Shown: positions 34,701 through 37,700 of the stretch, piece after piece
How the letters are laid out: the number at the start of each line of letters is the position of its first letter
How positions within the stretch are numbered: the first letter of the stretch is position 1
From: Owenia fusiformis
Lineage: Eukaryota
DNA: 64,000 nt
Assembly (NCBI GenBank): GCA_903813345.2
Contig: CAIIXF020000001.1
Location: forward strand, 16,678,001 to 16,742,000
Direction of reading: 5' to 3'
Position numbers and translations under genes: made by a program
The notes under the pieces: model-generated
What the model was told of the DNA's origin: nothing
What the model saw: the letters and a program-made list of their open reading frames with translations, nothing else
The model's database searches: none

Positions 34701-37700
34701 GAAGGGAAAGAAGTGTTCACATTGACAGCTGTTCAGATTCGAGAGGTGTTCAACCTACAGTTAAAAAATGAATTTTCATGGAGCTTATTTTGGGATTTAT
34801 GAATTAAAGTTTTTACTGCTGAAGATGTTTCATTGAAAATATGAGAAACACAGTGTTGTGTGAGGTAATGAAAATAATTTGACCAAATCTAAAAAATAAT
34901 CAAAGTGCAATATTATAAGGAATAATAATCATATATTAGATACTAGCCAAACAACAAGCAATCCAAAATATGGAAATCTTTTGCAACTAAAATATGAATG
35001 TATTATATCCACATTATATTGCAAGTAGGTATGGTGCTTTGATTGTTTTTGGTTTTTATGGTTTGATAGACAATTTTCACTGTCTTAGACTGTAATAAGG
35101 AAATTCATGAGAAGTAAAACTTATGAAATAAATTTCAGCCTCCACACCTGGTAGGAGAGGGAGGAAAAGGAAAGCTGAAAGTATAATAGAGAAAACTGAG
35201 GTAGGCAGCTTATTATACTTTATTTCATTTGTAATTATGTCACCACCACAAGTTGTGACATATTGTTATTGTCTCCAATTTTTTTTGGGATGGTGTTTGG
35301 TGGTTTGTGTTCAGCAGTTGGTGTTCGTTTGAATGAACCATTGATTTTGCTTGGGAACATATTCAAAGATTCCATTTTTTATCAATATACTGTATATTAT
35401 TGATGAATTATTTATTCAGGAATAAAAAGTATTACTGTAGATTGGGTTAATTTGGTGCTACTTAATTTTGCCATTTTTGGCATATTGGCGGCTATTTAAT
35501 TTGGTGGATATGCAAAAAAAATGTTAAACTTACATGTTTGGCTATGTATGATATTTCCCTGGGATTCATTCTAAATTTTGGCGAAGATTTATATTGGCGA
35601 ATTTTTCAATTTCGCCAAATTAAAGCAGGCGTCAAATTAACCCAATCTCCAGTATTAAAGTTATTTTATCAGGTACAAGGAATCCAGGATTCCAAAAAGA
35701 TTCAGTCATTTCTTTTAATTATCATCAATGATGAATATTAGTAGTACTCCCCACTTAATGTGATTGTCTTTATCTTCTTGTTTAATGTTTTATTCACTAT
35801 TGAGAACTAGATTATCTTGTAGTGGTATATAATGTCAATGTCTGTGATTTATATTCTCTCTCCATCTCCATTGTGTTGGCTGATCATGGTCAAACATCTG
35901 AAATATTTTAATTTAAAGACATTCATTTTTATGTCACCACCACAAACCACAGATGGTGGCATCTTGTTATATCTCTAACTTTTTGTGGATGGTGTTTGGC
36001 ATCTGTAACAAATGGCAGGTAGTGACATTTTGCATGTTAATGCCTTAATTTTGCTAAATTCACTTTTTACTTCAGGAAGAGTCCAAAATTATTTTTACAA
36101 AGATGATTTGATTTACTCAATGCATGCTTGATACATACACAAATTATCAGTCTTTTAACAATGAACAGAATAAAGTCACATCTTGTGCCATAGATCATAA
36201 TATCGAGGTTTTTATTCCTTAAATAATTTTTACTTCAGATTTGTTGATGTATTACCTTTTTACAACACACAGCGGCACTGTCCATAGCACGTACAATAAT
36301 ACATAGGGCCATGTTGTTCTTGATCTGGGTTCTTGGTGAACTCGTTACAGTCTGTGAACCTGAACGCTCTTCTACCTTCACTTTGTATAGCTTTCAGAAA
36401 TCTTTTCCTTCTACCCACACAGCCACATTCCTGGCATTCGCACCATCCCCTGCGAAGTTCGTTACAGTTTGTGAACCTCATCCAGTTTTCACCTTGATTC
36501 GACAGTTCTTCACGCTGTTGTGTAGTTGATGGTTTGCAGAAAGCAATAAGGCAAAAGACAAGGATAACCAATACTCTGTACTTCATCTATAAAAAAATCA
36601 TATATGCAGTAAAACATCAGGCCTGTAGCCCCCCCCCCTTTCTTTCACCATTCTGACTATTTTTTGAGTGATTTTTGGCCATATTTGCCAAAGTGAACCC
36701 CCCCCCCCCCCTAGAAATTTTTGGAAAAGTGAACCCCCTTGGAAAATTCCGGCTACGTGCCTGAACATGCTTTGTGAAATCCCTCTATTAGTTAATGTCT
36801 TTCCATAGTTATAGAACACTATTTCTAGAGACTCAGTCCATTGATTTCTGCATTACAACTCTTCTCTGGCAATTTTTTTTGTGCTTTTAAAGGTGTTCAT
36901 AATACACAGGTTTCAGTGATTATTGGTTTTTGTCTGCAAGCATCTTTGAGTGTACTCTCAGAAATATAGATGAATGTCAAGTCAAAAAATGTAAATTCAG
37001 ACTACATTTTATGTACAAACAAAATAAGAGACTAAGACCACTATATTTTACCTGAAACCAGAAAAGAAAATTAATCAAAAGGAAGATTTAGGATCTACAT
37101 GCAGAAAGTGAAACCTATTTGTTCATGTAGTATAGTTATCGATTGTTACATTTAAGAAACTTACCATGTCTTAATCCTTTGTAAATTCAGTTTACTTTTA
37201 AATATGTGTAAACAAAAACTATACTTATTTAGTTGAAACTTGTATATAGTTTAGTAGTGAAACTTATCAGTGTAAAGTTACCTTTGATCTTAGTATGCTG
37301 TGGTGTGTTTGTCGATTGAATAAACAAAAACATGTTTTGGGGTATTCTATAAACAATATGAGAGTGAAGAAATTATCTTTAAGTTTGATAAACCGTTTCG
37401 AGGTGATGAACCCTTTGAAGTTCAGTTGTCATTTGTTTGTAAATCAAAGTCTCATTTGTAATTAAATAATTATTTCATTTGTGATATGCACTTATAGCAT
37501 TCTAATGAGCAATAACTAGCTTTTCAATTTTCATTTGTTTGTAAATCAAAATCTCATTTGTAATTAGATAATTATTTCATTAGTGATATGAACTAATAGT
37601 ATTTCAATTAGCAATAACTAACATTTCATGATTAGAACTTCTTAAATCATATGCATTTTCTGAAGTGAATTACTATCATCCCTTTATATCCTTGTAATAT

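Follow-up and report, generated by a model that had tools for sequence, protein, structure and literature searches.

A nested antisense gene of Owenia fusiformis predicted to encode a secreted precursor with two five-cysteine modules

The window analysed here is a stretch of 64,000 nucleotides (nt) from Owenia fusiformis (assembly GCA_903813345.2, contig CAIIXF020000001.1, positions 16,678,001 to 16,742,000 of the forward strand), and all coordinates below are positions within it. An earlier note, made from the letters alone, had proposed that an antisense gene for a cysteine-rich secreted peptide precursor lies nested at 36260-36586. We found at this place a minus-strand gene that is transcribed, spliced and constrained in its protein sequence, and that lies within an intron of a gene on the plus strand. 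It very probably is a real gene encoding a secreted product with ten cysteines. On balance, though not by much, we favour an account in which a three-exon nested gene gives rise to a secretory precursor that is cut into two disulfide-linked chains, with a role in signalling as the preferred function.

A spliced minus-strand gene inside a host intron

The host gene lies on the plus strand. A protein of 1214 amino acids (aa), P0005, which carries the names 'unnamed protein product [Owenia fusiformis]' and 'Proliferation-associated SNF2-like protein', matches the host exon 41690-41911 (+) at 99% identity, and in a tblastn comparison its alignment to the window falls into about 20 exons that extend from 31719 to 48342 and are mostly 96-100% identical. 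From these matches we take the host to be the gene for a HELLS-like SNF2 (chromatin) helicase. One short host exon of 62 nt, 35139-35200 (+), was found both by tblastn (P0005 residues 378-398) and as complementary DNA (cDNA) joints in three of four sequencing runs, which fixes the left edge of the nesting intron at 35201. The following exon is 38385-38723, and the intron thus spans 35201-38384 (+). Host splicing across it is seen in one contig (X10 record 2), which connects 34345-34558, 62 more letters and 38383-38557. All nested exons that were seen or predicted fall at 35684-37167 (-), within this intron and on the opposite strand, over the span mapped.

To describe the transcripts we compared the cDNA contigs of the four runs (X3, X10, X11 and X16) with the window over 33000-39000. 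The kind of run is recorded as a guess; we read the contigs as cDNA because spliced transcripts of the host occur in these runs too, with plus-strand GT..AG host joints present in X3, X10 and X11. Within the host intron, a joint from 35897 to 36256 skips 358 bases that read CT..AC on the plus strand, and hence GT..AG on the minus strand, so the gene must be read from the minus strand. Contigs in two of the four runs, X3 and X10, which come from two studies, carry this joint. In X3 it is spanned by a contig of 552 letters (record 25) that follows 36588..36256 and then 35897..35684, with 217 letters on the shorter side of the joint; in X10 it is spanned by one contig with 34 letters on the shorter side, and further X10 contigs lie at 36260-36390 and 36443-36569. 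X11 had no contig over 36216-36617 and X16 had short pieces of low depth only, from which we drew no conclusion.

These contigs and the sequence together define most of the gene. Exon 2, 36256-36586 (-), contains the whole open reading frame (ORF) with its TAA stop and 4 nt of the 3' untranslated region (UTR). The ORF itself runs from ATG to TAA over 36586..36260 (-), with the stop codon at 36262-36260, and its 108 codons specify the product that we call P0001. Intron 2, 35898-36255 (-), lies in the 3' UTR and has the donor AAAAG/GTAATA and the acceptor tatttcAG/ATGTTTG (slashes mark splice or cleavage points throughout), and exon 3, 35684-35897 (-), is 3' UTR that reaches at least to 35684, where the X3 contig ends. 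The earlier note had read an AATAAA beyond the stop codon as the polyadenylation signal. The hexamer is present at 36216-36211, 44 nt past the stop, but it falls inside intron 2 and is removed in the isoform seen, in which the 3' UTR runs on in exon 3; the region of that exon contains candidate poly(A) signals at 35794, 35786, 35719, 35500 and 35416.

The 5' end of the coding region appears to be divided between two exons. The source annotation gives a product of 109 aa, P0002 (MMKYRV...), recorded as an uncharacterised protein and identical to P0001 except for one additional Met at the N-terminus. An in-frame TAG (36589-36587) immediately precedes this ATG and overlaps the sequence of a splice acceptor, ttttttatAG (AG at 36588-36587). 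Since this stop codon rules out a contiguous upstream Met, the additional Met of P0002 has to come from a spliced upstream exon ending in ATG, and the acceptor that had been noticed beside the ATG is therefore real. From 36587 to 38384 the minus strand offers only two sites of the form ATG/GT. We place the end of exon 1 at the first of these, ATG/GTAAGT at 37167-37165, because its donor GTAAGT fits the consensus. The predicted exon 1 would then end at 37165-37167 (-), with 5' UTR upstream of it, and the predicted intron 1 would cover 36587-37164 (-), a length of 578 nt.

The ORF stands apart from the repeats that surround it. Word depth in the cDNA contigs was about 12-650 over the ORF, while the neighbouring stretches 35211-36215, 36618-36818 and 37623-38225 reach 1e4-1e5 (up to 4.0e4 in the case of 36618-36818, a repeated segment within intron 1). 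From this difference we conclude that the ORF is not part of a repeat, and tblastn found no second copy of it in the 64-kb window. Its content of guanine plus cytosine is 43.7%, compared with 32.9% for the host intron around the coding sequence.

Several repeated features lie close to the gene. Copies of repeats flank it in the host intron, 35236-35268 resembling 38179-38211 and 36004-36052 resembling 38269-38317; their word depth in cDNA is as high as about 1.6e5, with many contigs that connect 3527x to 3598x-3602x. They look like an abundant transcribed element resembling a miniature inverted-repeat transposable element (MITE), and an insertion within this copy appears to hold the 3' UTR exon of the nested gene. 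A stretch of high depth further along the host intron contains an inverted repeat of 55 nt, whose arms (37761-37815 and 37839-37893) are 93% complementary and enclose a loop of 23 nt; it is probably a second small element of the foldback kind. The presumed intron 1 has two minus-strand runs of G within its repeated segment, 10 G at 36627-36636 and 13 G at 36697-36709, and one class of contigs has an extra C at 36733.

The predicted precursor and its relatives

An ORF of this length is on its own no evidence of a gene. The window has 46 listed ORFs of at least 90 aa, and chance alone would supply about three of at least 108 codons (stop to stop) in 64 kb of equal composition. What sets this one beyond chance is that its two halves match each other, that a paralogue keeps every cysteine and that the minus strand is spliced. 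Aligned locally, the halves scored 55, compared with 23.3 +/- 4.8 for shuffles that preserve cysteine content, and 0 of 2000 shuffles scored 55 or more. The two modules proposed for this ORF, each with five cysteines and preceded by a start resembling a signal peptide, are thus present as the earlier note had described them, and they are related.

The segment resembling a signal peptide occupies residues 1-17 (36536-36586, minus strand, as are all the segments that follow) and consists of MKYR and a hydrophobic run of 13 residues. We predict a signal peptide here on the basis of that run and of small residues at positions -3 and -1, in a layout that the paralogue shares; the cut would most likely fall after the conserved Cys17 (A-F-C/K here, V-L-C/E in the paralogue). 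Between this segment and module 1 lies an N-terminal extension, K18-N34 in P0001 numbering. Module 1, W35-V57 (36416-36484), has the arrangement C-x7-C-x-C-x2-C-x-C and is followed by GRRKR (G58-R62, 36401-36415), a candidate furin-type site that includes a possible amidation Gly. A spacer, FLKAIQSE (F63-E70), and then GRR (G71-R73) occupy 36368-36400 and lead to module 2, A74-L108 (36263-36367), arranged as C-x17-C-x-C-x3-C-x-C. Both modules open with RFT(N/D)CNE and end in a CxC-loop-CxC, as delimited from the sequence and from the alignments of the halves and of the paralogue. The mature part contains ten cysteines, five per module, separated by gaps of 7, 1, 2, 1, 23, 17, 1, 3 and 1 residues, and has no adjacent cysteine pair.

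We looked for relatives with phmmer among 1,835,955,588 representative proteins (E <= 0.001). There were three matches: the query itself, P0003 and P0004. P0003 (CAH1785913.1 / A0A8J1XX42) is a protein of 109 aa from Owenia fusiformis (E 2.7e-10, 43% identity) that is encoded on another Owenia chromosome and is therefore a paralogue and not an orthologue. P0004 (1111 aa, kinase-like, E 4.9e-4) was set aside as a compositional match, as the alignment involves nine cysteine-free repeats that resemble the RRGW...RKR stretch. No relative from a mollusc, a brachiopod or another annelid appeared at this threshold in the proteins searched. A word-indexed protein search returned one candidate, the protein itself; in a profile search two of 11 candidates matched, both from Owenia; and a metagenome scan gave 106 pattern matches, 0 of which were confirmed by tblastn. 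The search for relatives that the earlier note had suggested thus yields one Owenia paralogue with all ten cysteines kept. The absence of both minus-strand transcripts and a homologue with conserved cysteine spacing was what that note had named as telling against its gene, and both were found.

The two paralogues have in common the start MMKY, the layout of the signal peptide, the ten mature cysteines, a CGCV motif and a C-terminal Leu, together with W-RFTNC-x-E in module 1 and F-x-DCNEF in module 2, and they differ in loop lengths. The RR/A ahead of module 2 is kept in both members of the family (GRRA in one, RRRA in the other). In comparisons of modules across the paralogues, module 1 matched module 1 with a score of 81 and module 2 matched module 2 with 68, while the cross pairs scored 37 and 33. 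Because like modules match better than cross pairs, the two-module design existed before the gene was duplicated and has been kept since.

Variation within the species also suggests that the protein is under constraint. Between the cDNA haplotype and the coding sequence of the window there are nine listed differences, five synonymous and four replacements (T22A, T84P, K85R and G93S), and no listed difference falls on a cysteine or a basic site. The ratio of replacement to synonymous polymorphism (pN/pS) is about 0.19, and the probability of five or more synonymous changes out of nine is 0.017 under neutrality.

The framework had not been recognised when the sequence was first read, and we likewise found no match to a described family in Pfam, the PDB, the ESM Atlas or the phmmer search. 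Pfam gave no credible family match for P0001 or P0003; the single match of P0001 (13 bits) is to an unrelated helical domain, and P0003 had none. Searches of the PDB by sequence and by profile returned designed repeat proteins only (E 0.16 and 0.0029), which we discarded as spurious, the profile match because its span, profile positions 5-37, is that of the signal-peptide region. In the ESM Atlas the best feature scores, to spider toxin clusters, were 0.75-0.78, under the threshold of 0.9 for a lead, and no usable match came from the mature part by itself. There was no insulin or relaxin profile match (Pfam, E <= 10, apart from the unrelated one of 13 bits) and no insulin-type cysteine spacing, and for prokineticin/colipase, Toxin_35, Toxin_9 and Toxin_20 neither paralogue matched the profile at the gathering score. 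The motifs that give CLCCY, FYFY and GSWN their names are absent from P0001, a comparison made by motif and not by alignment to the published precursor sequences. In the literature on cysteine-rich precursors of Owenia, annelids and lophotrochozoans, as far as the accessible texts extend, neither the peptide nor the framework is described, and the supplementary sequence sets of those papers may contain relatives.

Altogether, the two paralogues appear to form a lineage-restricted family of secreted, cysteine-rich proteins with an undescribed framework. The range of two members in one species is a lower bound, as small genes are often unannotated elsewhere.

Possible processing and function

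Sites of the form K/R-R and R-x-K/R-R are recognised by convertases, and a Gly before basic residues is a signal for amidation. With these rules the precursor of roughly 109 aa could be read as a signal peptide of about 17-18 residues, an N-terminal extension of 18 residues and the two related modules, and its maturation would proceed in four steps. The signal peptide would be removed co-translationally, and the ten cysteines would form five disulfides by oxidative folding in the endoplasmic reticulum. As each module has five cysteines, an odd number, complete pairing calls for at least one disulfide between the modules; the simplest pairing, which is speculation on our part, would close each CxC-loop-CxC hairpin with two disulfides and link the RFT(N/D)CNE cysteines of the two modules by the fifth. 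Furin or a prohormone convertase would then cut at the conserved inter-module RR/A. In this copy an additional cut at RRKR/F would release the octapeptide FLKAIQSE, and the Gly residues would permit amidation of FLKAIQSE and of the terminal Val of chain 1. The product would consist of two chains of about 40 and 35 residues (K18-V57 and A74-L108) held together by disulfides.

We put processing into two chains, as judged from these motifs, at about an even chance. That the product acts in signalling, as a hormone, a neuropeptide or a pheromone-like peptide, and not in defence or as a structural component, we propose tentatively, and with a little less assurance than the cleavage. We lean towards signalling over defence on grounds that are each a weak indicator: the presence of convertase and amidation signals, a low net charge and purifying selection.

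A number of observations weigh against this account. Secretion, cleavage, amidation and the disulfide pattern are all read from the sequence, and the cleavage and amidation signals proposed in the earlier note hold up in part: RR/A before module 2 is shared, but GRRKR is found in one of the two members (the paralogue has TIRQEDL), as is the amidation Gly at each of the two sites. If the precursors are processed, then one cut would be common to the paralogues and the amidated ends would be peculiar to this copy. AlphaFold2 (AF2), run with a two-sequence alignment, gave a predicted local distance difference test score (pLDDT) of 44.7 and a predicted template modelling score (pTM) of 0.26, or 46.6 and 0.29 for the mature part alone. 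The first model has a helix at P0002 residues 5-18, and both models draw the CxC stretches as beta strands at pLDDT < 60, a confidence too low for any predicted fold to back the hairpin scheme. As for the gene structure, the joint between exons 1 and 2 is not among the 15 joints listed (of 89), and exon 1 is placed by its splice signals; the other ATG/GT site, ATG/GTGAAA at 36651-36649, would give an alternative exon 1 and an intron of 62 nt, and the X3 contig has two letters past 36588 that do not match the window. Of the 11 letters that differ in the contig piece compared, nine enter the variant count. Finally, with a family of two members from one genome, conservation is judged from a single pairwise comparison.

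The same gene could also yield a product that is never cleaved, a secreted mini-protein of ten cysteines with five internal disulfides, in which the clusters of basic residues would form surface loops and whose role would be defensive (antimicrobial or toxin-like) or structural, for instance in the tube matrix. Ten cysteines can pair fully without cleavage, and neither GRRKR nor the two amidation Gly residues are conserved; on the other hand, the inter-module RR/A stands at an aligned position in both paralogues, and R-R-K-R in this copy is a textbook furin site. Loops that vary around a fixed cysteine scaffold, together with a lineage-restricted range, are typical of invertebrate defence peptides and toxins, and the nearest, if weak, feature matches in the ESM Atlas are the spider toxin clusters, although scores in that range serve as leads only and were not borne out by the mature part alone. 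The mature net charge, +4 for P0001 and +3 for P0003, is mildly positive, as a defence peptide might have it, but low for a cationic antimicrobial peptide, and the allelic pN/pS indicates purifying and not diversifying selection. Taken together, we consider an uncleaved product possible but rather unlikely.

A much smaller probability attaches to two further explanations. The precursor might be a highly diverged member of a named family of lophotrochozoan cysteine-rich neuropeptide precursors. Such motif-named families exist and small peptides diverge fast: a 10-Cys FYFY precursor and other cysteine-rich precursors are described from the oyster in the available part of one report (PMC8398477), and the accessible parts of three others (PMC3890597, PMC6425005, PMC8557429) record CLCCY from annelids, molluscs, brachiopods and phoronids. 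Yet no mollusc or other annelid protein was among the three phmmer matches, both proteins that matched in the profile search are from Owenia, and the sequence has no adjacent CC and neither of these two motifs (again by motif, not alignment), so that membership in a family of this kind seems very doubtful. More improbable still is that the ORF is non-functional, a fortuitous frame in an antisense or intronic transcript or in a transposon-derived fragment that the annotation pipeline translated. In favour of this, chance would produce about three ORFs as long as this one in the window, and the gene is surrounded by MITE-like repeats, with its 3' UTR exon inside repeat-rich sequence. Such a frame would scarcely explain a paralogue on another chromosome with invariant cysteines, the internal repeat that 2000 shuffles did not reproduce or the surplus of synonymous allelic variation, and the ORF has the word depth of single-copy sequence with no other copy in the window, canonical splice sites and a stop codon 4 nt before the last exon junction.

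Neighbouring features, known systems and significance

Elsewhere the window contains duplicated blocks, an array and a further gene. The 4036 base pairs (bp) of 47404-51439 recur at 59156-63191 with 100% identity and include the last coding exon of the host (48193-48342, equal to 59945-60094), and a second pair of 813 bp, 57694-58506 and 63188-64000, is likewise 100% identical; these pairs reflect either very recent segmental duplication or a duplication in the assembly. Between the duplicated blocks, 52381-53574 (+) is an open frame of 397 aa that we take to resemble a PiggyBac-type transposase. A tandem array at 5205-6493 has a period of 49 bp and copies about 94-95% identical; one of its frames is open (ORF 5281-5553) and reads as a repeated peptide. 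Upstream, at 9348-16221 (+), lies a gene with a Ser/Asn-rich exon of 472 aa (10291-11709) and a Cys/His-rich exon (15904-16221); the latter presumably resembles a PHD finger, and the gene would then probably encode a chromatin protein.

As a design, the favoured two-chain product recalls the insulin and relaxin prohormones, which convertases cut into two disulfide-linked chains on either side of a connecting peptide; the A chain of the insulin type has an adjacent cysteine pair. The analogy, which is one of design only, covers a predicted signal peptide, two cysteine-bearing segments, a spacer that in this copy has basic sites on either side, and one or more expected disulfides between the segments. 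Unlike those prohormones, the precursor described here has no Pfam insulin match, no CC pair and a different cysteine spacing, and its segments are duplicates of each other with five cysteines each; moreover the paralogue, with one basic site, would free no connecting peptide. One could nevertheless imagine an oweniid-restricted hormone that reached an insulin-like design independently, as a chain, an excised and amidated spacer and a second chain joined to the first by disulfides. Its origin would be the tandem duplication of a five-cysteine module with the hitherto undescribed framework RFT(N/D)CNE-x(n)-CxC-x(2-4)-CxC, the fifth cysteine of each module would form an obligatory bridge between the chains, and the paralogous ligands would act on distinct receptors. 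Taken as a whole, we think this elaboration unlikely.

Other small cysteine-rich proteins are similar in part. Protegrin and tachyplesin are beta-hairpin peptides with two cross-strand disulfides in a CxC...CxC arrangement, and our modules likewise end in CxC, two to four residues and CxC, where the AF2 models of low confidence draw strands. In contrast to those peptides the product is not strongly cationic, the putative hairpin is part of a longer module with a fifth cysteine, and there is no cathelin-type pro-domain. Metallothioneins are cytosolic, metal-binding proteins rich in CxC and CxxxC, with no signal peptide, about 30% cysteine and no aromatic residues. CxC and CxC-x3-CxC motifs are found in them as in our sequence, but P0001 has a start resembling a signal peptide, cysteines at 10 of 91 mature residues (11%) and W, F and Y among its residues, and it has no Pfam match of that kind.

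Two comparisons come from the oyster and hold for the part of the report that was available (PMC8398477). The oyster eclosion-hormone precursor contains two ligands with a dibasic site between them (PMC8398477), and it resembles the Owenia precursor as a small secretory precursor with two related cysteine-rich modules; its modules differ in having six cysteines each and in being able to fold alone, whereas those of Owenia have five, and the sequences are unrelated by Pfam and phmmer. The oyster CCCGS, FYFY, GSWN and clionin precursors (PMC8398477) are also small, have a signal peptide, as is predicted here, keep their cysteines while their loops vary and have a narrow range, but no similarity to them is detectable by phmmer, and the present gene differs in its two C-x(7-17)-CxC-x(2-4)-CxC modules and its antisense nesting.

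The importance of the gene is limited in that lineage-specific cysteine-rich secreted peptides are common in marine invertebrates and that it was already annotated as uncharacterised. It is also a case in which a small nested gene was correctly recovered by reading the raw sequence alone. The predicted products, two chains (K18-V57, A74-L108) and a spacer (F63-E70), are concrete and open to mass spectrometry. Should the account favoured here be true, the two Owenia proteins would make up a new family of secreted peptides, restricted to its lineage, with a disulfide framework that is also new.

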